Part shown: piece by piece, positions 1 through 28,477 of the stretch
Layout of the letters: each line of letters begins with the position of its first letter
Numbering within the stretch: the stretch's first letter is position 1
DNA from: a virus
Taxonomy: Duplodnaviria; Heunggongvirae; Uroviricota; Caudoviricetes
Length of the DNA: 41,779 nt
Strand: one strand, 5' to 3'
IMG/VR virus record: IMGVR_UViG_2721755647_000004
Position numbers and translations under genes: made by a program
The notes under the pieces: model-generated
What the model was told of the DNA's origin: nothing
The model's input: only the letters and a program-made list of their open reading frames with translations
Database searches by the model: none

Positions 1-91
1 CACAACATCCGAGAACAGCAACACCCGATACTTTTTCCTGGCTTCCAGCAACGGGGTTTCTTCCTCCGTTGCATATACAGCTCACCTTTTT

Positions 92-385
92 TCACCCACG
101 ATTAACCAACAGCCAGACCAGCAGACACGCCACCACCGGCACAGCAAAATCCATCAGGCTTGCCACATCCCAAGCACGCGGATCAAAACCGCCCCACCAC
201 GGCATATTCATTCGCTTGCCATGCCCGAACATTTCAATCCAGCGATATTCTGCCTGGGTATGTTCACGCGCAATGAAGAACGTACAACCGGCTATCGCTC
301 CGTAAGCCCAGTTTCCGGTAAAAAGACCAACCAGTATCTGCGCAGCCACAGCACAAAGTGCATGAAGTAAGGGGCTTATATCCAT
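92..385 (-). CDS. hypothetical small membrane protein at the distal end of the tail-fibre region
   Basis: Complete 97-aa ORF with two hydrophobic stretches (AVAAQILVGLF; VPVVACLLVWLLV). No family recognised. Confidence 0.35.
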   Translation of the reverse strand: MDISPLLHALCAVAAQILVGLFTGNWAYGAIAGCTFFIAREHTQAEYRWIEMFGHGKRMNMPWWGGFDPRAWDVASLMDFAVPVVACLLVWLLVNRG

Positions 386-397
386 TATTTCCTCCTT

Positions 398-676
398 TCA
401 GCTCCATTCCCGAAGCGGTGTTTCCAGCTCCACGACATAATCAGAGAATACAGAAACATCAAACAAGTCATCAAGAATGCGAATGTTGACAAAATAACCA
501 TCATTCCGGATACAGACAGGTTCTCCCTCTTCTGTTACCCCTGTTTCTGTGTAGGTGAAACCAATTTCATCAACTAACAGTTTATTCTGGAGGTCTTCAT
601 CTTCCGCCCAGCCAAGAGATGACAGGAAGGCCTTAAACTGCAGTTTGTCATAAAACTTCAAAGTTAAATCTTTCAT
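398..676 (-). CDS. hypothetical acidic protein directly downstream of stf; possible tail-fibre chaperone or accessory protein
   Basis: 92-aa ORF whose start overlaps the stf stop (ATGA at 673..676). Sits where lambda has tfa but is half the size and not recognisably Tfa. Confidence 0.4.
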   Translation of the reverse strand: MKDLTLKFYDKLQFKAFLSSLGWAEDEDLQNKLLVDEIGFTYTETGVTEEGEPVCIRNDGYFVNIRILDDLFDVSVFSDYVVELETPLREWS

Positions 677-2739
677 ACGACCTCTTTTAATTGCCTGTCA
701 TTTAATTCTTTATGCCATATGCGGAAATTGCGAATATGGCCAAACAGATGTCGTTCTCCAGTATTCGTCTGCCCTCCAAATCGGATATTTTTATCAGCGG
801 TCACGCCATTATATTCACAATAAACTTCATTAACCGCTTTACCATTTGTCACCACATGAAAGTAACCATCAGCTTTTGCAATACATCCAAATGTGGTTTT
901 CTCTGCAAATACATCTGTCGCTGCGCTATTAACATACGAGCCTGAAGGGTTTGACAGACTCATATATAACTTACCACTACCTCTGTTGATTGCTGCAATT
1001 GCTGATTGCCCGGTATTGGCTGCTGCTATATCCCACACGCGGGGTGCGGCGTTTGGTGCAATATCCCAGTTTTTATGAATCTCAAGTGAAAAAGTAAATG
1101 GTAACTTATAAAGATTATTTCTGGTGGGGATACTAACCAAATCACTGGCTCTTGTCGTTGCGCTGCCTCCTGAAATAATAAATGATGATACACACGGCCC
1201 ATTCTCTACTTGTGGGGTGGCAAGATAAATATAGTCACCAGATACTGTTGCCCCACCCCGCTCAGGAGAATACTGTATCTGAGAGCCTATTTTTAACTCA
1301 CCATCAATTGCCTGAATCGTTGCCTCTGCAAAAATCCAGCCTGTGGTCTTATCCTTCCTGACTCGTGCCGTAATTCTGCCGGCAGCACCACCTGTCATAT
1401 TAATTTCAAGCGTTTGCGTATCAATGTACGCATCGCCAAGAAAAGTTGTTGCACTACCATCATACTTATCAAACCGTATACGTAACCTTACCTGTCGTTC
1501 TGTTTTAAAACGGCATGAGGTTGTCACGTACTTATTATCGCCTGAGACATCAACTGACTTTGTTGCAGCAATTGATGCCATATTAATAGCCGAAGTTTGC
1601 CCAACCAGAGAATCGTTGCAGACAAACTTTCCATAAGTAAAACCAAAACTATCCGTCCCGGTTTCGGGCACATCCATGTTTGATGACTTCCCCCAGCTGG
1701 CTGGACTTTCCGAATTGAGCATGTAGTTCGTTCTTTGTCCCTCAATAAGCAGGCCATCACACTCAAATCGCGGCTCATTAATTTCCGCCGTTTTCAGTTC
1801 GCCAGATTTGTTGATATATGTTGCCGTTGATGCGCGACTGAAATTAACCTGTTTATCACTGGCGACCTGAACCACATCGTCACCAATAGCTATTTTTTTA
1901 TAGCCCGGAGAAAAACCCGCAATCATATCCAGTGAATCGTTAAACGGTATCCACACATCAGGCAGCGGCGGCACTATATTCGCATAGGGCTCTGCAGTCA
2001 CTTCCGCTGCGGCTTCTGCGCGGTCTGCCGCCTTTTCAGCTCGTGTCGCTGCCGACAGAGCCTCATCCTTTTTCTGCCCGGCCTTTGTTGCGTCTGCTGC
2101 AGCCTCCCGCGCTTTTGTGGTGGCGACTCCGGCATTTTCAGCGGCTGACTCTGCATTACGGCGGGAAGCCTCTTCACTGTCTGCGGAGGCTTCTTCTGAC
2201 GCACGGGCATTTGTCTCTGAACGTTCTGCCGCTGTTGCTGCGTTTTGTGCGGCTGTTTTTGAAGAAGCTGCCGCTTTCGCGCTGTTACCTGCATTCGTCT
2301 CTGATGTTTTCGCCGCGTTCCTGGACGATGCCGCTGCTGTTTCTGATTTCTTTGCTGCCGCTGCGCTCTGAGAGGCGGCTTCAGCGTTGCGTGCCACATC
2401 CTCCACCATTACCTCAAAACGACGCAATGCCTCCGGCATGACATCCTCTTCCGTCATGGCACCCAGAAAATCATTCAGCGTCCCCGGCTTAGAATCCTCA
2501 TACACGGTGATGGTCCCGGCATGTGAAGGCGGAAAACCTTCAACCAGCAGGATAACGCTGTACTGGCCATACTCGACATCCATGCTGTAACGTCCGGCTT
2601 CATCCGGATTTTCTGAGGCCACCGTGTTCACCACAACCGTGGTGCTGTTACGTTTTGCTTTGAGCTGAATGGTGCAGTTCTGTATCGGTTTTCCTGCACC
2701 GTCTTTCAGCACGCCTGAAATCTGTACTGCCATATTCAC
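673..2739 (-). CDS. stf: side tail fibre protein Stf
   Basis: N-terminal ~115 aa (MAVQISGVLKDGAGKPIQNCTIQLKAKRNSTTVVVNTV...) match lambda Stf from memory. Central Ala/Ser/Glu-rich repeat region; C-terminal domain not recognised. Confidence 0.8.
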   Translation of the reverse strand: MNMAVQISGVLKDGAGKPIQNCTIQLKAKRNSTTVVVNTVASENPDEAGRYSMDVEYGQYSVILLVEGFPPSHAGTITVYEDSKPGTLNDFLGAMTEEDVMPEALRRFEVMVEDVARNAEAASQSAAAAKKSETAAASSRNAAKTSETNAGNSAKAAASSKTAAQNAATAAERSETNARASEEASADSEEASRRNAESAAENAGVATTKAREAAADATKAGQKKDEALSAATRAEKAADRAEAAAEVTAEPYANIVPPLPDVWIPFNDSLDMIAGFSPGYKKIAIGDDVVQVASDKQVNFSRASTATYINKSGELKTAEINEPRFECDGLLIEGQRTNYMLNSESPASWGKSSNMDVPETGTDSFGFTYGKFVCNDSLVGQTSAINMASIAATKSVDVSGDNKYVTTSCRFKTERQVRLRIRFDKYDGSATTFLGDAYIDTQTLEINMTGGAAGRITARVRKDKTTGWIFAEATIQAIDGELKIGSQIQYSPERGGATVSGDYIYLATPQVENGPCVSSFIISGGSATTRASDLVSIPTRNNLYKLPFTFSLEIHKNWDIAPNAAPRVWDIAAANTGQSAIAAINRGSGKLYMSLSNPSGSYVNSAATDVFAEKTTFGCIAKADGYFHVVTNGKAVNEVYCEYNGVTADKNIRFGGQTNTGERHLFGHIRNFRIWHKELNDRQLKEVV

Positions 2740-2791
2740 TCCACAAATAAAAAAGGCGCCATTTCTGGCACCCGTATCTGGGTTATAAAAT

Positions 2792-5700
2792 TCAACTGAT
2801 ACTGATACCAGCTGTAGATTTCTTCATCACAACAACAAGAAGGTCGCTGATACTGGTCGTTGGCGTCCAGTTATTAGCACCATATGAAGAAACATTGAAA
2901 GTCAGGGTGACATGGCCGTGTCCGGCAGGCATATCAATGACTGATGAAAATACCCTGCTGACATCCGTCGCGGGTTGCTGAAAGATTTCCTGTCCGTTCT
3001 TCAGCACCTGCAGCTTACAGGTTGAATACCAGTATGACTGTTGGTTGTTGCTGTTGAAGTTTTCATGCTTACCACCGCGAAACAGAACGGGGGGGATTAC
3101 TATCTGACGGTCAAAAGCCTGGTCATCGTACACAGTGACCGTTATTGTACCGCTGGCATAACTGCCATTTCTCGGAAAGGCTTTTCCCACCGTTTTGACA
3201 ATATCACCTTCAATCTGGTTGGCTGACAGTTTTCCCAGAATCCGACAGTTCTGATTAATCGTGACGTTGTTGAGCGTCCCGGAGTTCGCGTTCACGTTAC
3301 CGCTGATATCCGCATTTTTCGCAGAAAGTCGACCATCAGGTGTCAGTGAAAACGTTGGGGGATTGCCACCGCTGGTAATGGTGGGAGCCGTCAGATATTT
3401 CAGGAACACTTCGTTCATGAATATCTGATCGCCCTGCCCAACAAACATCGGCTTTGTGTTGCCATTCGCAGGATTAATCATCGCAATCCTGTCCGCCGCC
3501 AGCAGCACCTGACTCTGCATACCGTCAGGAGTATTCTCAATACCGGCACCAATACCCGCGATATAAAGGCGTCCGTCCTGCATCTGCTGCAGCTTCACAG
3601 CCCACATGCTGTTCAGGTTATTATTTGTATCAACCTGAACCTTCTGTATCTGCTGGATCGCTGCACTCTGGTCTTCCAGTTTCTTATTGACGGTCTGCGT
3701 GATTTCATTGCTGACACCCGTAATGGACGTCCTGATTTCAGCCAGGTCAGGCGCAAGCTGACCGTTATCAATCTGCGTCCACAACTCCTGAGCCAGATGG
3801 GTTTTCCCTATCTCTCCTTTGAAAAAATTCAGATAGCCGGATGCATCATCACTCGGCTGGCCAACAGCCTCCACAAATGCCGATTTGCCAACGGTGTTCA
3901 CACTGCGGATGTAAAAATAATAATCATGGCCCGGTTTGATATTGATACTGGCGGCTATCCAGTACAGCGCCGTGCCAAGATAGCGTGCTGTGGTTTCAAC
4001 CTGCCTGATATCCGCAATCCGCTTTTCCGAGAACCAGAACTCAAACTGTACCGTCGGATCATAAACCGCAAGATGCGGCGTGGCGGTTATCTGAAAATAC
4101 CCCGGTGTCAGCTCAATCTGCGACGGCGCTGCCGGTGCGGCAATCCGGAACGATACCGATGCCGGATCGCCCTGCTGCCCCCACGCATTTACTGCCCGGA
4201 CTGTCAGCCTGTAGTTCCCCAGCGCCAGTTGTGTGAAGCGGTATGTGGTTTCCGCCGTCCGGGCTGTGCTGACCAGCCGCTCACTGCCGTCATCCGCTGC
4301 CACGGTCAGGCGAAGCATGAAACTCACGCCCTTCACCACCTTCGGCGTGTCCCAGCGGGCCAGTACCTGATACTCCCCGCTGTCTGCGGTGACTTCGGCA
4401 GTCAGGTGCTGCACTGCTGGCGGCGTGACACCATTCACCGTGCCGCTCTGGTCGCCGTCAAAGTGCGCCCCGTTATCCACGATGGCTTCTTTTTCCGGTA
4501 CATGCTGCACGGCGGTGATGGCATACGTGCCGTCGTCGTTCTCACGGATACTCACGCAGCGGAACAGGCGCTGGCGCAGCGTCGGCAGCTTCAGCCCCCA
4601 CACGCTGTATCCGGCAACGCCGTCAGGAACACGGCTAACTTTCACCTTCACGCCGTCGGTGACGGACTGGACCTCCACGCTGACCGGATTGCCATTTCCG
4701 TCAACCAGGCTTATCAGCGTGGTGCCGGAGGATGGCAGCATGATTTCACGGTCGAGCGTCAGTGTCCGCGCCTGGCTGTTCACCGCCAGCACGCGCCCGC
4801 CGATGCTGATACCCGCATAGTCATCATCGCAGATTTCAATGACATCGCCCGGTACATGGCGAAGCCCTTCTGCGCCCACGCTGAAGTCCACGGTCTGCGT
4901 TTCCAGCAGCTCCGTTTTAATCAGCCACAGCCCGGCGCGGTGTGCCTGCCCCCGACTGGTACAGCCAAAGGCATCCATCTTCGTGACGTTACGACCGTAA
5001 CGGGCAATGGCCTGCGTGTCCTCCACAAGCTCTGTCGCCGTCTCCCAGCCGTTATCCGGGTCAATCCAGTTCACCTCAACGGCATTATGGCGGTCTTTCA
5101 GGGCGCTGAAGCTGTAGCGGAACGGCGCACCATCATCCGGCATCACCACATTACTGCAGTTATAGGTCCACACCTTATCCGATGGTCGGTCCTGCACGAA
5201 TGTCAGCGTCTGTCCGTTCCATACCGGCATACAGCGCATCGCCGAGCAGAAATCACTGAGCACATCCCACGCCTTACGCTGTGTGGTCAGCCAGGCATTA
5301 CAGGTGATGCGCGGCTCCGTGCCACCAAAGCCATCCGGCACCGACTGGTCGCAATTCTGGCCGATGACATACAGCGCCCATTTGTCCACATCCGCCGCAC
5401 CGAGACGTTTCCCCATGCCGTAGCGCGGATGGGTCAGCATATCCCACAGACACCAGGCCATGTTGTTGCTGTATGCTGGCTTAAACGTTCCGTCCCAGAT
5501 ACCGCTGTATTGCCGCGTCTGCGGGTTATAGTTCGACGGCACCTGCAGAATGCGCCCGCGAAGATGATAATTACGGCTCACCTGCTGACTGCCGAACTGT
5601 TCCGAGTCCACCTGCACGCCGACCAGTGCCGTGTTCGGGTAGCACTGTTTCACATCGATGATTTCGGTGTATGACGACCAGAGCGTTTTGTTCTGCAGCT

Positions 5701-6274
5701 GGTCTGTGGTGCTGTCCGGCGTCATCCTGCGCATCCGGATATTAAACGGGCGCGGCGGCAGGTTACCCACCACCACCGAGGCCAGATACTGCGAGGTGGT
5801 TTTGCCCTTAATGGTGATGTCTTTTTCCGTCACCCAGCCACCGTTACGCTGTATCTGAACCAGCAGGCGGACTTCCGACGGATTCCTGTCCCCCTTTGAG
5901 GTGGTTTCCACCAGTGTCTGCACGCCGAAAGTAAAACGCAGACGGTCAATGTTTGCCGACGTGATGGTCCGGGTGATCGGCGTGTCATATTTCACTTCTG
6001 TACCGAGCACCGTCTCGGAACCGGAGGATTCAAACCCCTCCGGCGGAGTCTGCTCCTGCTCACCTGCCCGGAACACCACCGTGACACCGGATATGTTGGT
6101 ATTCCCCTCAGTGTCCAGCACCGGCGTACTGTTCAGCAGCACGCTTTTTAATCCATCCACCGGACCTTCAACCGGCCCTTCGCTGATGGCATCGATCACA
6201 CTCAGCAACTGCGTGGACTTCAGGTTGTCCTTCGCTTCGCGCGGGGTATGCCCCTTACTGCTGCCTTTACCCAT
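2792..6274 (-). CDS. J: tail tip host-specificity protein J
   Basis: 1160-aa ORF following I in lambda order; size and position match lambda J (1132 aa). Confidence 0.9.
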
Positions 6275-6334
6275 TCCTCACGCTCCGTAAACGACAAAAC
6301 CGCCCGCAGGCGGTTTCACATAAAACATTTTGCA

Positions 6335-7006
6335 TCAGCGACCAATCACCACAACCTGACCACCGTCCCCTTCGTCTGCCGTGCTGATCTCCTGAGAAAC
6401 CACGCGTGACCCCACGCGCATTTCACCGTACAGAACGGGCAGAACATTGCCCTGGGCAACCATGTTATCCAGTGAGGAGAAATAGGTGTTCTGTTTGCCG
6501 TTATCCGTTGTCTGTGTACGGGGAGTTCTGGCTTTCGGTGCCAGCATCTGCGCCACACCACCGAGCACCATACTGGCACCGAGAGAAAACAGGATGCCGG
6601 TCATACCACCGGCCCCAATGGCTGCCCCCCATGCTGCAAGGGTGGCTCCGGCGGTAAAGAATGATCCGGCAATGGCGGCAGCCCCCAGGACAATCTGGAA
6701 TACGCCACCTGACTTGGCCCCGGCGACTCTGGGAACAATATGAATCACAGCGCCATCAGGCAGAGTCTCATGTAACTGCGCCGTTAACCCGGACGTGCTG
6801 ACGTCCCGCCCGGCAATCCGTACCTGATACCAGCCGTCGCTCAGTTTCTGACGAAACACCGGGAGCTGTGTGGCCAGTGCGCGGATGGCTTCAGCCCCCG
6901 TTTTCACACGAAGGTCGATGCGGCGGCCAAATCGTTGCAAATCCCCGTAAAGGCAGATGCGCGCCATGCCCGGTGACGCCAGAGGGAGTGTGTGCGTCGC
7001 TGCCAT
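6335..7006 (-). CDS. I: tail assembly protein I
   Basis: 223 aa, the same length as lambda I; N-terminus MAATHTLPLASPGMARICLYGDLQRFGRR. Confidence 0.9.
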   Translation of the reverse strand: MAATHTLPLASPGMARICLYGDLQRFGRRIDLRVKTGAEAIRALATQLPVFRQKLSDGWYQVRIAGRDVSTSGLTAQLHETLPDGAVIHIVPRVAGAKSGGVFQIVLGAAAIAGSFFTAGATLAAWGAAIGAGGMTGILFSLGASMVLGGVAQMLAPKARTPRTQTTDNGKQNTYFSSLDNMVAQGNVLPVLYGEMRVGSRVVSQEISTADEGDGGQVVVIGR

Positions 7007-7647
7007 TTGTCGGTATACCTCTCTCGTTTGCTCAGTTGTTCAGGAATATGGTGCAGCAGCTCGCCATCACCACAGTAAATGGCGGCATGATTCGGCACCG
7101 ATGAACCAAAACAGCACAGCAGCACATCGCCCGGTTGTGCTGATGACAACGGCACCTGATACAGCCCTGTGGCCTCCAGATTATCCAGATAGAGATTCTG
7201 ACCGTGACGCCACCAGTCATCCTCGCGATGAAAATCCGGCATCTCAATCCCCGCCAGATGATAAGCATCCCGGAACAGCGTGTAACAGTCCGTCACCCCG
7301 TGCTCAAAGCGCCGCCCGGTGAGATGCGGCACACAGCGGAACTTATGAATCGCCCCCCGGCAGACCAGCCACCACGGCAAATCACTCTGCACCTGCAGCC
7401 GCCGGTCGGCCTCACTCAGCCAGGGCAGACCACCGGGGTGACTGTGGACCAGCGCCACAATCTCACCCTGCATTTCTGCCTGCAGCCAGTCTTCCGGCGA
7501 CATACGGAAATACGCCTCCGGCTCACCGGAGATATTCACGCAGGGGAAATATCTTTCCCCCTCCGGCGTGCTTACCACGAAGCCGCACGACTCCGCTGGC
7601 GCACATCGCCGGGCGTGCGCCAGAATCGCTGATTCTGTCTGTGTCAT
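6904..7647 (-). CDS. K: tail tip assembly protein K (MPN/JAMM-like HSHP motif plus NlpC/P60-like region)
   Basis: The ORF overlaps I by 103 nt, as K does in lambda. The 247-aa reading frame may be longer than the real protein: an internal Met at 7503 gives 199 aa, the lambda K length. Confidence 0.8.
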   Translation of the reverse strand: MTQTESAILAHARRCAPAESCGFVVSTPEGERYFPCVNISGEPEAYFRMSPEDWLQAEMQGEIVALVHSHPGGLPWLSEADRRLQVQSDLPWWLVCRGAIHKFRCVPHLTGRRFEHGVTDCYTLFRDAYHLAGIEMPDFHREDDWWRHGQNLYLDNLEATGLYQVPLSSAQPGDVLLCCFGSSVPNHAAIYCGDGELLHHIPEQLSKRERYTDKWQRRTHSLWRHRAWRASAFTGICNDLAAASTFV

Positions 7648-7652
7648 GGGAT

Positions 7653-8351
7653 TTACTGCGAAAGTTTGTTAATGGAAAGGAAGCCGCCAAAGTTGCCGAC
7701 GTTATTGCGAAACTTACAGCCACTCAGGCATTTGCTGCATTTATCCTTCGTGATATCGGACGTCGGCTGGTCATATTCATCCGCGACCGCCGGACCGCTA
7801 TAACCGCACTCATCACCGCGATAGGTCCAGGTGCAGGTGTTGGCCAGCATGATGCGCCCCGGAAAAACAGCACCATCCGTTTCCGTCGGCGTGGACAGTA
7901 CAAAAGAGGCACTCACCGCGCTCAGTTCGCTGCACTGCTCAATGCGCCAGCGGCTGATCACCTCCTGCTCCGGATCGGCGTCACTGTTTCCGTTGACGAA
8001 GTTCACCGCATCCAGAAAACGGGCGTAAACCTTACGCCTGACCACCGTTCCGCCGACCAGACTCTGCAGATCTTCCGCCATCCCGGTGACCATACCGTAC
8101 AGGTTAGAAACCGTCAGCGTGGGGCGCGTACTGGTGCCTTTGCCATTCAGTTCAAAACCACTCCCCTGAATGGGATACGGCTGATACTGTCGCCCCTGCC
8201 AGGTGACCGGCTCACCTTTTTCGTTCTGCTCATTACAGAAAAAATAACGTTCTCCACCGACCTCTGTCAGATCGATTTCCCAGAGCACCACGCTGGCCGA
8301 CTGCTCCGCACGGGTGCATTCATTCAGTGTTTCCTGCCGGATATCCTGCAT
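7653..8351 (-). CDS. L: minor tail protein L
   Basis: 232 aa, the same length and position as lambda L. Confidence 0.9.
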   Translation of the reverse strand: MQDIRQETLNECTRAEQSASVVLWEIDLTEVGGERYFFCNEQNEKGEPVTWQGRQYQPYPIQGSGFELNGKGTSTRPTLTVSNLYGMVTGMAEDLQSLVGGTVVRRKVYARFLDAVNFVNGNSDADPEQEVISRWRIEQCSELSAVSASFVLSTPTETDGAVFPGRIMLANTCTWTYRGDECGYSGPAVADEYDQPTSDITKDKCSKCLSGCKFRNNVGNFGGFLSINKLSQ

Positions 8352-8680
8352 CAGATCACCACCTGTTCAAACTCTGCGCTGAACTCAACACGCAGCATAC
8401 TGACCCGCGACGACCATTTTGCGCAGGTCACCTTTATCTGCCGCCACTCATAAGGCGGCGTCCACAGAAAGGCTTTCCAGCCCCCGTGCTCAGCCAGAAA
8501 CGACTCCAGCGCCGTGGCCTCCCAACGGGGAACAGAAAGCGTCACGCTGTACGTTTTCAGGTCGGCATTCAGCCCGGCAGGCGCTCGCTGGGAATAGCCA
8601 TCACCAAAGCGCACTTTCCTGACGGAAGGGGCCGAAGCCACATCCATACCGGGTTTCACTTTCCAGCGGAAGGTCTTCAT
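8351..8680 (-). CDS. M: minor tail protein M
   Basis: 109 aa, the same length and position as lambda M; overlaps the L start. Confidence 0.9.
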   Translation of the reverse strand: MKTFRWKVKPGMDVASAPSVRKVRFGDGYSQRAPAGLNADLKTYSVTLSVPRWEATALESFLAEHGGWKAFLWTPPYEWRQIKVTCAKWSSRVSMLRVEFSAEFEQVVI

Positions 8681-11244
8681 CGTCCACCTCCGGAGAACAG
8701 ACCACCATCGCGCATCTGTGCCTGAATTTCATCACGGGCACCCTTGCGGGCCATGTCATACACTGCCTTCAGCATCTGTGGACCTGGCAGACCATTCGTA
8801 CCGTCGTTCTGAATCACCACGTTGTTGTTCTGCTCAAATCTGATACCCTCTGAACGCCGCATTTGCGCCGGACTTCCGGTGCCACCGACATAACCACCGG
8901 TGGCATAGCCGCGCATCAGCCGGTAAAGATTTCCTACGCCAATCCGGCTGGTTGCCTCCTTCGTGAAGACAAATTCACCACGGTGAACAATCCCCGCTGG
9001 CTCATATTTGCCGCCGGTTCCCGTAAATCCTCCGGTCGCAAAATGGAATTTCGCCGCAGCTGCCTGAATGGCTGTAACGCCTGACGCTGATGCGCCGCCG
9101 CCAATGGCGCTGCCGATACTTCCGACAATCCCCACCATTGCCTGCTTAAGCAGAATTTCTGTCATCATGGACAGCACGGAACGGGTGAAGCTGCGCCAGT
9201 TCTGCTCACTGCCGGTCAGCATCGCCGCCATATTCTGTGCAATGCCATCAAAGGTCTGCGTGGCAGCACTTTTTACCTGCGACATACTGTCCGTGGTGCT
9301 CTCTTCCCACTCACTCCAGCCGGACTTCAGGCCTGCCATCCAGCTCCCGCGAAGCTGGTCTTCAGCCGCCCAGGTCTTTTTCTGCTCTGACATGACGTTA
9401 TTCAGCGCCAGAGAATTATCGCCATACTGTTCCTTCAGGCGCTGTTCCGTGGCTTCCCGCGCTGCCTGCCGGTCAGTCAGCCCCCGGTTTTTTGCATCAA
9501 TGGCGGCCCGTTTTGCCCGTTGCTGCTGTGCGAATTTATCCGCCTGCTGTGCCAGCGCGTTCAGGTGCTCCTGATAGGTGACCTTGTCGCCAAGTGCAGC
9601 CAGCTGGCGTTTGTACTCCAGCGTCTCATCTTTATGCGCCAGCAGGGATTTCTCCTGTGCAGACAGCTGGCGACGTTGCGCCGCTTCCTTCAGTACCGCG
9701 AACTGACTCTCCGCCTTCCACAAATCCCGGCGCTGCTGGCTGATTTTCTCATTCGCTCCGGCATGCTTCTCCAGCGTCCGGAGTTCTGCCTGAAGCGTCA
9801 GCAGGGCGGCATGAGCACTGTCTTCCTGACGCTCTCCTGCAGACACCTTCACGCCGGACTGCTTCGGCTTTTTCAGTGTCGCTTCATAGTCCTTTTTCGC
9901 CGCCGCCATCAGCGTGTTGTAATCTGTCTGCAGGATTTTTCCGTCTTTCAGGGCCTTATTCAGTTCTTCCTGACGGGCGGTATATTTCTCCAGCGGCGTC
10001 TGCAGGCGTTCATAAGCCTTCTGCGCCTCTTCGGTATATTTCAGCCGTGATGCCTCAGACTCGGCCCAGTCCTTTGCTGCCATCTCTCTGGCCTTTTCAA
10101 GATCGGCCTGCAACGTGGCGGCTGAAAGCCCAAGTTGCGCATTCGCTCTGTCCTCCCATGCTCCCCGGAGATTAGCAAGAAATGCGGATGTTTTACCGCG
10201 CCGGTGGCTCCGGCTCTGATACCACTGCCATTTTTTGTCCGCCTCATCAAAAGCCTTTTCTGCTTTCTCCAGCATTTCCCGGGCAGTGTCCGGGCGACCA
10301 ATATCCAGCACCGAATCCCACATGGATTTGAATGCCCGCGCTGTCCTGTCTGCCCAGGTCTCCAGCGTGCCCATGTTCTCTTTCAGGCGGCGGGTCTGGT
10401 CATCAAACCCTTTCGTTGCGGCCTCGTTCGCCGCCTGCAATGCCCCGGCTTCATCTCCGGAACGCTGCAACTGAGCAACATACGCAATCTGCTCCGCCGT
10501 CACGTTATGGAACTGACGTGCCATCGCTGTCAGTCCCGACGTCGGGTCTGTGGTCAGCTTCCCGAAGGCTTCAGCGACCTTGTCCACCTCCACGCCGGAT
10601 GCAGAGGAGAAACGCGCCACACTCTGGCTGATCGCCTCAAACTGCTCACCACCACGCACACCTGCATTCACCAGCGCCGTCAGTGACTCGCTGGTCTGGT
10701 TAAACGTCAGCCCTGCCGCCTGCCCGGCTCTGGACAGGACCAGCATACGATCTGCCGTCAGTCCTGCCTGATTACCGGAAAGGACCAGCGTTTTATTGAA
10801 ACTGGACAGGGTTGAGTCCCCCTGATACCAGGCATACGCCAGCGCACCGGTCGCCACCGCCAGCGAGGTGGCCCCGACCATCGGCAGGGTGATCGCACCG
10901 GCAAGCCCCCTGAACATGGGGATCATCCCGCCGAAGGAGTCCTTCACCTGACCACCCTGTTGCAGCAGGATCAGCCACGGACTTTGCCCGCCTGCAAGCT
11001 GCGTGGCCACGTCGGTGAACTGCGCAGGCAGCATACGCATGGCAGCTTTATACTGCCCGACGGAAATCCCCGCTTTCTGTGCAGCCAGTGCCTGTCGGCT
11101 CAGCGACTGTTCAACGACTGCCGCTGTTTTTTTCGCATCACTTTCCGTACCGGAAAAATGACGCCTGACTCTGGCCATCTGCTCGTCAAATCTGGCCGCA
11201 TCCAGACTTAAATCAACGACCAGATCGCCTACCGGTTCAGCCAT
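8677..11244 (-). CDS. H: tail tape measure protein H
   Basis: 855 aa (lambda H is 853); starts MAEPVGDLVVDLSLDAARFDEQ as lambda H does. Confidence 0.95.
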   Translation of the reverse strand: MAEPVGDLVVDLSLDAARFDEQMARVRRHFSGTESDAKKTAAVVEQSLSRQALAAQKAGISVGQYKAAMRMLPAQFTDVATQLAGGQSPWLILLQQGGQVKDSFGGMIPMFRGLAGAITLPMVGATSLAVATGALAYAWYQGDSTLSSFNKTLVLSGNQAGLTADRMLVLSRAGQAAGLTFNQTSESLTALVNAGVRGGEQFEAISQSVARFSSASGVEVDKVAEAFGKLTTDPTSGLTAMARQFHNVTAEQIAYVAQLQRSGDEAGALQAANEAATKGFDDQTRRLKENMGTLETWADRTARAFKSMWDSVLDIGRPDTAREMLEKAEKAFDEADKKWQWYQSRSHRRGKTSAFLANLRGAWEDRANAQLGLSAATLQADLEKAREMAAKDWAESEASRLKYTEEAQKAYERLQTPLEKYTARQEELNKALKDGKILQTDYNTLMAAAKKDYEATLKKPKQSGVKVSAGERQEDSAHAALLTLQAELRTLEKHAGANEKISQQRRDLWKAESQFAVLKEAAQRRQLSAQEKSLLAHKDETLEYKRQLAALGDKVTYQEHLNALAQQADKFAQQQRAKRAAIDAKNRGLTDRQAAREATEQRLKEQYGDNSLALNNVMSEQKKTWAAEDQLRGSWMAGLKSGWSEWEESTTDSMSQVKSAATQTFDGIAQNMAAMLTGSEQNWRSFTRSVLSMMTEILLKQAMVGIVGSIGSAIGGGASASGVTAIQAAAAKFHFATGGFTGTGGKYEPAGIVHRGEFVFTKEATSRIGVGNLYRLMRGYATGGYVGGTGSPAQMRRSEGIRFEQNNNVVIQNDGTNGLPGPQMLKAVYDMARKGARDEIQAQMRDGGLFSGGGR

Positions 11245-23675: not shown

Positions 23676-24137
23676 CTATCTGCACTGCTCATTAATATAC
23701 TTCTGGGTTCCTTCCAGTTGTTTTTGCATAGTGATCAGCCTCTCTCTGAGGGTGAAATAATCCCGTTCAGCGGTGTCTGCCAGTCGGGGGGAGGCTGCAT
23801 TATCCACGCCGGAGGCGGTGGTGGCTTCACGCACTGACTGACAGACTGCTTTGATGTGCAACCGACGACGACCAGCGGCAACATCATCACGCAGAGCATC
23901 ATTTTCAGCTTTCGCATCAGCTAACTCCTTCGTGTATTTTGCATCGAGCGCAGCAACATCACGCTGACGCATCTGCATGTCAGTAATTGCCGCGTTCGCC
24001 AGCTTCAGTTCTCTGGCATTTTTGTCGCGCTGGGCTTTGTAGGTAATGGCGTTATTACGGTAATGATTAACAGCCCATGACAGGCAGACGATGATGCAGA
24101 TAACCAGAGCGGAGATAATCGCGGTTACTCTGTTCAT
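23676..24137 (-). CDS. Rz: spanin inner-membrane subunit Rz
   Basis: Start at [45 protein letters not shown]; 153 aa, lambda Rz-like. Confidence 0.9.
23735..23917 (-). CDS. Rz1: spanin outer-membrane lipoprotein Rz1 (embedded in Rz, +1 frame)
   Basis: 60 aa: [60 protein letters not shown], matching lambda Rz1. Confidence 0.9.
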
Positions 24138-24248
24138 TGCTGACCCCACAAACAGATTTCACGCTCAATCTCACGACGAGTCATGAGACCTTTCCATTGC
24201 TTACCGCCAGCATATGTCCAGCGACGTAGCTGATCACATGAGCCTTTG
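24134..24248 (-). pseudogene. R: C-terminal fragment of SAR endolysin R (phage 21 type), separated from its 5' part by the IS insertion
   Basis: Minus-strand translation reads [37 protein letters not shown] stop. The stop overlaps the Rz ATG. Confidence 0.85.
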
Positions 24249-26202
<1,954 letters not shown>

Positions 26203-26591
26203 CCTTTGATATCGCCCTGGTTTATTTTGCGAAGAAGCGTCGATGTTCTGAAATTACCAGCACCCACGTTGTAAACGAATGAGTAAAGAGCGCCGCGCGT
26301 TGTTTCCGGTATATCGACTGTGATGTACGGGTTAATTTGTCTGGCGACAGTGGCAAGGTCTTTATTCAGGAGTGCTTTGCATTCTGCTTTGGTATACGTT
26401 TTACCGAGCATGATGTCTTTTCCTGTATGCCCGTGACATACAGTCCATACACCAACAATATCTTTGTATGGTATGTAGCTGACACCTTCCAGACCATCGT
26501 TACCACTTGGGCCAGTGATTAACACTGATGCTATAGCAATTGCTCCGCCACCAATAGCAGCAGCAACGGCTTTTCGTAATGATGGAGGCAT
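26203..26591 (-). pseudogene. R: N-terminal fragment of SAR endolysin R (phage 21 type), truncated by the IS insertion
   Basis: [59 protein letters not shown]... has a signal-anchor-release N-terminus and lysozyme fold. The frame joins the 24134..24248 fragment across one copy of the target repeat to give a 165-aa protein. Confidence 0.85.
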
Positions 26592-26968: not shown

Positions 26969-27394
26969 AAGCTGTGTGACGAAGTAACCACTCTTAACAG
27001 CATAACCAATTTTTTACGTACGTAAACTACTAAATGATATTTGTGAGAATGCCACCGAGTGTTCAAAACACCACCACAAATGCATAAGAAAACTTCAACA
27101 AATAACCAGTTAATAATTTCCGATGTTATTTTTAGTTTGTTTAAATTAAGCTAAAGAATTATAGAGCACTTATAAATAAGTGCCATTAATATAAATTAGC
27201 TAATAGATTTATTTTTGTTCAGACAAGAGCCATGAATAGGATTAGATAGAAAAGGTTCCGATAAAAATAGAGATCTACTTCACAAATTAAATGAGAAACT
27301 AAAACTTACATCTTGAAATAATCACATTGATTAGATGAATATTTATCGCGCAGTGACATCATTTTTTAATAATAGTTCAAAAAAAGGGCGTACA

Positions 27395-28477
27395 ATGAAA
27401 AAATTAACAGTGGCAATTTCTGCTGTAGCTGCATCAGTACTGATGGCGATGTCTGCTCAGGCAGCTGAAATTTATAATAAAGACAGTAACAAGCTGGATC
27501 TATACGGGAAAGTTAATGCCAAGCACTACTTCTCCTCTAATGATGCAGATGATGGTGATACTACTTATGCCCGTCTTGGCTTCAAAGGTGAAACCCAAAT
27601 CAACGATCAACTGACTGGTTTCGGTCAGTGGGAATATGAATTCAAAGGCAACCGTGCTGAATCTCAAGGTTCTTCCAAAGACAAAACCCGTCTTGCATTT
27701 GCAGGCCTGAAATTTGGTGATTACGGCTCAATCGATTACGGCCGTAACTACGGTGTAGCATACGACATCGGTGCGTGGACTGACGTTCTGCCAGAATTCG
27801 GTGGTGATACCTGGACCCAAACAGATGTGTTCATGACTGGTCGCACTACTGGTGTTGCAACTTATCGTAACAACGACTTCTTTGGTCTGGTCGATGGCCT
27901 GAACTTTGCTGCTCAGTATCAGGGTAAAAATGACCGCACTGACGTAACTGAAGCCAATGGTGATGGTTTCGGTTTCTCCACTACTTATGAGTATGAAGGA
28001 TTCGGCGTGGGTGCAACCTATGCTAAATCAGATCGCACTGACGGTCAGGTCGCCTATGGTAAGAGCAAATTCAATGCCTCCGGCAAAAATGCGGAAGTAT
28101 GGGCTGCAGGCCTGAAATATGATGCGAACAATATCTATCTGGCTACCACATATTCTGAAACTCAGAATATGACCGTTTTTGGTAATAACCATATTGCAAA
28201 CAAAGCACAAAACTTTGAAGCAGTAGCACAATATCAGTTTGACTTCGGTCTGCGTCCATCTGTTGCTTACCTTCAGTCAAAAGGTAAAGACCTTGGTGTT
28301 CATGGTGACCGAGACTTAGTCAAGTATGTCGATGTCGGTGCTACTTACTACTTTAATAAAAACATGTCCACTTTTGTTGATTACAAAATCAACTTAATTG
28401 ACGATAGTAAGTTTACCAAAACAGCTGGTATTGATACCGACGACATCGTCGCTGTAGGTCTGGTTTATCAGTTCTAA
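27395..28477 (+). CDS. nmpC: outer-membrane general porin, phage-borne NmpC/Lc (OmpC/OmpF family)
   Basis: [23 protein letters not shown] signal peptide, [24 protein letters not shown] and C-terminal ...VAVGLVYQF porin signatures; AAAGGG Shine-Dalgarno upstream; between Q and S as in DLP12 and PA-2. Confidence 0.9.

Follow-up and report, generated by a model that had tools for sequence, protein, structure and literature searches.

In phage lambda, the side tail fibre Stf is an accessory, reversible adhesin, as are the L-shaped fibres of phage T5; its distal part resembles gp37, has OmpC as its receptor and requires the protein Tfa (Caudo_TAP family). In the structure of Ur-lambda, twelve Stf N-termini make up a collar at the junction of gpV and gpM, and this collar bears four trimeric fibres (PMC12617516). 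The head spike fibre Rcc01080 (GhsB) of the Rhodobacter capsulatus gene transfer agent (RcGTA) is a flexible fibre, of which one subunit sits on a pentameric capsid base; its mutants adsorb poorly, and it binds capsular polysaccharide (PMC7296036, PMC5026251, PMC10218006). Only residues 2-10 of Rcc01080 are experimentally resolved, and Hynes et al. already noted that its phage homologues are annotated as tail or carbohydrate-binding proteins. Additionally, the DUF4376 proteins V22 gp27 and A5 gp9 were experimentally shown to be fibre chaperones (PMC7289586, PMC10579305). Here, we compare with these systems the stf gene, and the two small genes orf92 and orf97 that follow it, of a 41,779-nucleotide (nt) stretch of Caudoviricetes DNA (IMG/VR record IMGVR_UViG_2721755647_000004), which is referred to below as the window.

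The window was found to carry the side-tail-fibre cassette of phage 21 within a complete lambda-like prophage; the cassette had already been sequenced and is not new as a sequence. We consider it fairly probable that the locus as a whole is a phage-21-type cassette in which a lambda collar domain and an alanine-rich shaft carry a mobile lectin-like head, with orf92 replacing Tfa. The cassette is an instance of ordinary tail-fibre mosaicism and does not overturn current understanding; what the present analysis adds is the assignment of the head to a family, the tfa scar, a definition of the mobile cassette and the identification of orf92 as a fibre partner that is conserved widely. The features are listed below in coordinates of the whole window; J, stf, orf92 and orf97 all lie on the minus strand.

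2792..6274, minus strand: J, central tail fibre/host-specificity protein of 1160 amino acids (aa); an open reading frame (ORF) with 83% identity to lambda J over its full length, and its homologue in phage 21 is annotated as central tail fiber.
2754..2773, minus strand: terminator-like hairpin and T-run in the J-stf gap; a consensus match only, from a pattern scan, at a place where phage 21 has an annotated terminator.
673..2733 (ATG at 2733, stop at 673-675), minus strand: stf, side tail fibre of 686 aa; an ORF with 98.5% DNA identity to the side tail fiber of phage 21.
2383..2733, minus strand: Stf aa 1-117, lambda-type N-terminal collar/attachment domain; PF08400, alignment with lambda Stf and PDB chains.
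1975..2382, minus strand: Stf aa 118-253, Ala/Glu/Ser-rich shaft; composition.
676..1974, minus strand: Stf aa 254-686, mobile distal module of two concanavalin A (ConA)-like beta-sandwich domains, a putative carbohydrate-binding head.
1147..1749, minus strand: Stf aa 329-529, GTA head-spike-fibre domain (NF048003); NCBIfam, phmmer and family profile.
691..1083, minus strand: Stf aa ~551-681, LamG/ConA-like C-terminal domain with a conserved RHLFGHIRNFRIWH motif; PF13385, fold match and family conservation.
398..676, minus strand: orf92, an acidic 92-aa protein, translationally coupled to stf and a candidate fibre assembly/accessory protein.
92..385, minus strand: orf97, putative small membrane protein; PHROG 1443 and hydropathy.
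16..72, minus strand: lambda-type tfa scar (Tfa aa 156-174 of 194); tblastn.

As judged by sequence similarity, the first domain of the Stf head is homologous to the RcGTA head spike fibre. In particular, NF048003 ('GTA spike fiber' domain) matched Stf aa 329-529 with 55.3 bits (cutoff, 36), a single-sequence phmmer search aligned Stf with the PDB sequence of Rcc01080 at an E-value of 1.3e-9, and a profile built from 18 family members matched Rcc01080 at E 5.2e-20 over 235 residues. Motifs common to the family and Rcc01080 were present at both edges of the domain, RFE..LLIEG..TN and PQxE.G...SS.I.T...TRA.D. For the last ~130 residues of Stf, a weak match to Laminin_G_3 (PF13385, E 1.2e-4) was obtained, and the LamG-like assignment of this region is also backed by a fold match and by conservation within the family. 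The distal module, predicted as a single chain with AlphaFold2 from a 52-sequence alignment, was all-beta with a predicted local distance difference test (pLDDT) score of 93 and a predicted template modelling (pTM) score of 0.90, and the ConA-like lectin/LamG jelly-roll beta-sandwich was a significant structural match. A preliminary description of this locus, made from the DNA letters alone, had been unable to place the C-terminal domain; the domain is indeed unrelated to lambda orf-314, but it can be placed with the tools used here: a GTA head-spike-fibre domain comes first and a LamG-like domain after it. Homology and fold together indicate that the Stf head most likely binds a surface glycan. 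The distal-module family comprised 2,799 cluster representatives at E <= 1e-3. The distal-module profile also matched PDB 9OCC chain C, the distal tail protein gp17 of Shigella phage Sf11, over aa 261-403 (E 2.2e-6); this C-terminal part of gp17 is described as an 'extra appendage of unknown function', and the same lectin-like domain may thus also decorate a distal tail protein.

The possibility that the distal part of the fibre and the gene behind it are simply standard lambda Stf and Tfa, which the preliminary description had named as an outcome that would refute its reading, was ruled out by direct BLASTP comparison with lambda orf-314 and Tfa. The C-terminal ~430 aa of Stf gave no alignment with orf-314 better than E 5, and no gp37-like tip was found there; orf92 gave no alignment with Tfa at E <= 100, and the sole Tfa-like sequence was a 19-aa scar at 72..16. 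The rest of the anatomy agreed well with the preliminary description, in which the first ~115 residues of Stf were lambda-like, an Ala/Ser/Glu-rich region came next, a 92-aa acidic ORF with an overlapping start stood in the place of tfa, and J ran almost directly into stf without lom. PF08400 covered Stf aa 3-133 (E 5.8e-69, 230 bits; cutoff, 26.6), near-identity to lambda orf-401 extended to about aa 117, with ~80% identity to lambda Stf over aa 1-117 and 74% identity to orf-401 over aa 1-158, and aa 1-94 matched the Ur-lambda chains of PDB 9E7M/9MGH at E 5.6e-51. The region that follows (aa 118-255) contained 36% Ala, 12% Glu and 12% Ser and aligned loosely with the Ala-rich segment of lambda (53% over 107 aa, in low-complexity sequence); we infer that this shaft is trimeric and helical. 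Stf as a whole matched PHROG 1419 and other PHROGs labelled 'tail protein/tail fiber'.

The position of stf directly after J on the same strand also fits a lambda-type Stf. The J-stf gap was 58 nt (2734-2791) and contained only the hairpin, and lom was absent from it. Although the mechanical ORF list started stf at GTG 2739 (2739..673), the true start is almost certainly ATG 2733, because the resulting MAVQISG resembles the MAVKISG start of lambda Stf, because a GGAG sits 7-10 nt upstream, and because this start agrees with the phage 21 annotation and with a 2,232-member cluster of 686-aa proteins. The stop codon of stf and the start codon of orf92 overlapped as ATGA, an arrangement that was read in the window and its closest relatives, and orf97 began 12 nt beyond orf92, preceded by an AAGGAGG Shine-Dalgarno sequence.

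The suggestion of a swapped receptor-binding module was borne out by three observations: a lambda-type N-terminus was joined to an unrelated distal part, a piece of tfa was left behind, and the same module was found on a P2-type fibre. Just downstream of orf97, the minus strand of the window at 72..16 encoded ATEEETPLLEARKKYRVLL, which showed 84% identity to lambda Tfa aa 156-174 by tblastn. Two Escherichia ruysiae loci (L006, 7010-7117; L007, 5867-5983) retained a longer scar of aa 156-194, reaching the end of Tfa, with 87-89% identity. Since the scar starts at Tfa aa 156, the incoming DNA replaced the old fibre tip together with the first 155 codons of tfa. We also observed that the tfa remnant of the window is cut short and that sitD, part of the sitABCD iron/manganese transporter cargo, starts just past the left end of the window in both phage 21 and the closest E. 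coli genome.

In a P2-type prophage (P0087, locus L003), the fibre had a PF12571 N-terminus followed, from VPPLPDVW onwards, by the same distal module at 88% identity; behind it came homologues of orf92 (89%) and orf97 (81%) and then a 74-aa Caudo_TAP remnant. Other relatives in the family joined the module to a PF03406 N-terminus. Because P2-type and other N-termini carry the module, the unit of exchange is the module together with orf92, to which Escherichia adds orf97. The ends of the module were conserved and its centre was mosaic. Compared with the module of the window, L006 was 92-97% identical in the first domain and 32-50% identical in the second, whereas L007 was 12-45% identical across both domains and 77-80% identical at the two ends. 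A mosaic centre with conserved edges would be the expected look of a specificity-determining region with recombination-prone flanks.

Over window positions 1-3000, the DNA was 98.5% identical to the classical lambdoid phage 21 (OL657228), in which CPT_21_22, CPT_21_23 and CPT_21_24 (side tail fiber, hypothetical protein and putative membrane protein) represent the same genes in the same order. As in the window, stf of phage 21 is immediately preceded by J, with the same terminator between them and no lom. The first 3 kb of the window differed from phage 21 at 46 nucleotides, which were concentrated in the Ala-rich shaft; 24 of these fell within ~80 nt (window 2398-2479, minus strand), which suggests a small recombination patch or repeat slippage in this part of stf. 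The same cassette was present in the isolated phages ev017, PhiR63_2, PhiR57_1, mEp460 and Perceval, in Stx-converting phages and, at >=80% coverage, in 449 of 5,426 complete E. coli genomes (~8%). A literature search found no study of phage 21 Stf and, among the papers searched, no characterisation of the three phage 21 proteins.

Between the closest genome (L002, NZ_CP043181.1) and the window there were two substitutions and no indels. Positions 6673-8733 of this genome correspond to window 673-2733, and there the RefSeq/PGAP annotation breaks up the intact 686-aa stf: one feature is a 574-aa 'phage head spike fiber domain-containing protein', and the other is a pseudogene called 'prophage tail fiber N-terminal domain-containing protein'. 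This split is an annotation artefact, which recurs in many genomes. A frameshifted stf, as in lambda PaPa, was ruled out by the intact ORF of the window and the lack of an indel relative to this genome.

The product of orf92 is an acidic protein with an isoelectric point of 4.09. It matched PHROG 1361, a family with no known function, at E 1e-41 over residues 1-91 of 92, and it had no match in Pfam or NCBIfam even at E 0.1, Caudo_TAP (PF02413) included; nor was a match to DUF4376 (PF14301) found in orf92 of the window. A profile search with orf92 retrieved 667 clusters, and the best 120 of the 667 were unnamed or hypothetical. Judging from these searches, orf92 is not Tfa and belongs to an uncharacterised family. 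With the module profile, 22 loci were found in species-representative genomes, and in 16 of them a homologue of orf92, with identity down to ~30%, was the next gene after the fibre gene. The homologue overlapped the fibre stop codon or began within ~15 nt of it in 14 of these 16 loci, and lay 37 nt (L009) and ~220 nt (L010) downstream in the other two. The genera with a linked orf92 were Escherichia, Leclercia, Silvania, Buttiauxella, Atlantibacter, Aeromonas and Noviherbaspirillum. The six loci without a homologue were mostly partial matches in alphaproteobacterial metagenome-assembled genomes (MAGs). Small ORFs in the alphaproteobacterial/symbiont loci L018 and L023 looked alike by eye and were left uncounted, as their hidden Markov model (HMM) matches were not significant.

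One relative, in a Noviherbaspirillum MAG (L022, 4888-5502), was the only one to carry DUF4376: its 204-aa protein consisted of an orf92-like N-terminal region of 80 residues and a C-terminal DUF4376 domain (PF14301, E 4.9e-24). An HMM built without the L022 sequence still matched this protein at E 2.7e-8, and directly upstream of its gene lay that of a 315-aa fibre protein, which belongs to the module family (E 7e-38). Other DUF4376 proteins had different N-terminal domains, one of them Caudo_TAP-like, and stood after different fibres. The idea that orf92 is a general N-terminal domain of DUF4376 chaperones was ruled out by three other DUF4376 proteins with unrelated N-termini. Taken with those other N-termini, the L022 fusion suggests that the orf92 fold is an interchangeable module of fibre-assembly proteins, used where the fibre is of this type.

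Because tfa has been displaced, the linkage to the fibre gene is conserved and the L022 protein is fused to DUF4376, the best reading of orf92 is that of a protein dedicated to the assembly of this head or accessory to it, a reading to which we give slightly less than an even chance. The preliminary description had suggested possibly a different chaperone; the difference from Tfa held up, and a chaperone role would be plausible. With only slightly less confidence, orf92 could found a new class of fibre partner: proteins of ~90 aa, acidic, with an alpha/beta fold and no Pfam family, in at least 667 clusters, dedicated to lectin-type (GTA head-spike-fibre-like) heads. Members of such a class would either help the fibre to fold or assemble or stay on it as a cap or adaptor. 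As a cassette, they could pass between the side fibres of siphoviruses and the baseplate fibres of myoviruses, and they would stand in for Tfa.

As described in a previous report, phage 21 uses LamB through J (bioRxiv 10.1101/2024.04.15.589635), and for this reason Stf would be an accessory, reversible adhesin. In the account that we favour, Stf aa 1-117 would form the collar that holds the side fibres on the tail tip, and the alanine-rich shaft (aa 118-253) would present the mobile head of two ConA-like lectin domains (aa 254-686). Through its head, Stf would bind a surface glycan (O-antigen, capsule or lipopolysaccharide core) quickly and reversibly, after which J would engage LamB, leading to irreversible adsorption. 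Recombination would have brought in the head and removed the lambda gp37-like tip and most of tfa, with the tfa scar left behind; orf92 and orf97 would have come along with the head, and orf92 would take the place of Tfa.

Several points weigh against parts of this account. For the head, the Laminin_G_3 match to the C-terminus lies below the Pfam gathering score, a lectin fold alone does not prove sugar binding, and no ligand of this Stf or paper on it was found in the literature. For orf92, a high-confidence prediction shows the head as a self-contained monomer, and each RcGTA spike has one fibre subunit; such self-contained domains often fold unaided, and a chaperone may therefore be unneeded. 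Likewise, no chaperone requirement is known for RcGTA, and the fusion of DUF4376 to an orf92-like domain is a single case. We also saw that orf92 does not vary together with the central part of the module: L007 combines a module of 46% identity with an orf92 of 90% identity. Strict co-variation with the variable part was rejected, as the Pearson correlation (r 0.65) was largely phylogenetic and L007 broke the pattern. The missing co-variation would fit an action of orf92 on the conserved ends of the module, and also simple recombination. Finally, the prophage may be impaired for lysis, and particles are possibly not made, because an IS21-family element lies inside the lysis cassette.

Two other explanations of orf92 were weighed, both of them unlikely. 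According to one, orf92 is an adaptor that docks a second short fibre on the lectin-like head to give a branched fibre; in the window and phage 21, the second fibre would have been lost, with orf92 left vestigial or as a cap. Half of the 16 linked loci (L006, L008, L009, L011, L012, L017, L019 and L025) did have, as the next gene after the orf92 homologue, a gene for a short fibre protein of 146-358 aa without a long attachment domain, and in E. ruysiae the second fibre gene lay between orf92 and orf97. Five of these fibres carried the intramolecular chaperone domain Peptidase_S74, that of L011 carried Phage_tail_C_2, and that of L017 had matches to fibre PHROGs only; the domain scan covered all but the 146-aa ORF of L025. 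Such second fibre genes were located at 5614-6654 (L006), 5593-6297 (L008), 5527-6486 (L012), 2347-3423 (L019) and 5557-6414 (L011), and they suggest two-fibre or branched arrangements in those phages. However, orf92 was intact and yet without a following second fibre gene in the window, in phage 21, in the P2-type locus, and in the Aeromonas and Mu-type loci.

No better, in our estimate, stands the proposal that orf92 and orf97 are cargo for superinfection exclusion, receptor masking or anti-defence, hitch-hiking beside the fibre gene. The genes cor, lom and llp do sit near the tail genes of other phages. Unlike typical cargo, however, orf92 stayed directly behind the fibre gene down to the lowest identities and in several genera, and an orf92-like domain was fused to a fibre-chaperone domain in L022. 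PADLOC returned nothing for orf92 or orf97 as defence genes, and a known defence or anti-defence protein was accordingly rejected as an identity for orf92. For orf97 alone, a cargo role is reasonable. It is very improbable that the distal module does not bind a receptor and is instead a structural or enzymatic (depolymerase/esterase) domain, as its top fold matches were non-catalytic binding domains of enzymes and toxins, no catalytic family was found in it in the Pfam or NCBIfam searches, the homologous RcGTA fibre acts in adsorption, and the module has a hypervariable, mosaic central part, as a specificity determinant would.

The orf97 protein matched PHROG 1443, also of no known function, at E 2.4e-58 over residues 1-96 of 97, and hydropathy analysis revealed two strong hydrophobic segments (aa 3-24 and 74-95). 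It is a putative small inner-membrane protein, and its phage 21 counterpart is annotated as a putative membrane protein. It accompanied the cassette in both lambda-like and P2-like contexts, in Escherichia loci only and with inconstant adjacency.

Outside the cassette, the window represents a complete lambda-like prophage: it encodes head, tail and lysis functions, O and P, a repressor resembling cI and, at the right end, an integrase. The IS21-family element was located at 24335-26136 on the plus strand, between the lysozyme gene R (26591..26187) and Rz (24149..23676), and consisted of IstA (340 aa, rve domain) and IstB (260 aa; PF01695, E 8e-112). A prophage-borne general porin of 380 aa (Porin_1, E 2e-151) was encoded at 27335-28477 on the plus strand, opposite to the lysis genes and beyond the lysozyme gene; it is reminiscent of the Lc/NmpC porins of PA-2 and DLP12.

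Side fibres set the adsorption speed and the strain range of lambda-like phages and of engineered lambda particles. Placement of the head in the capsule-binding GTA head-fibre family provides a concrete glycan-receptor prediction for a common cassette and links a GTA capsid domain to coliphage tails. If orf92 is necessary for fibre function, it would need to be co-transferred when the head is used in host-range engineering, and one more family would join the short list of fibre chaperones. If orf92 does represent a new class of partner, the cassette would be a ready-made receptor-binding unit that needs no Tfa and with which lambda- or P2-based particles could be redirected to surface glycans.

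Upon comparison with the known systems, the locus was found to share with Stf and Tfa of Ur-lambda the N-terminal collar domain (~80% identity), the Ala-rich shaft and the place after J, and the expected role is likewise that of an accessory fibre that speeds adsorption. In contrast to Ur-lambda, the distal 433 aa in the window are unrelated lectin-like domains, Tfa is reduced to the 19-aa scar, and lom is absent. The jelly-roll domain is homologous to that of RcGTA Rcc01080/GhsB (NF048003; PDB 6TB9 and related entries); in RcGTA, however, the domain is located on the capsid as one subunit, anchored to the pentameric base by an N-terminal Leu-Gly repeat, whereas in the window it sits in the distal tip of a tail side fibre whose N-terminus is a lambda collar domain, and an extra LamG-like domain accompanies it. 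Like the DUF4376 chaperones gp27 of Alteromonas phage V22 and gp9 of A5, orf92 is encoded directly downstream of the fibre gene, although it lacks DUF4376 itself, and other DUF4376 proteins serve unrelated fibres. Finally, the P2-type tail fibre H (P0087, L003) carries the same distal module followed by homologues of orf92 and orf97; it differs in its PF12571 N-terminus for attachment to a P2-type baseplate and in its setting, a myovirus prophage with a Caudo_TAP remnant of the P2 G type.

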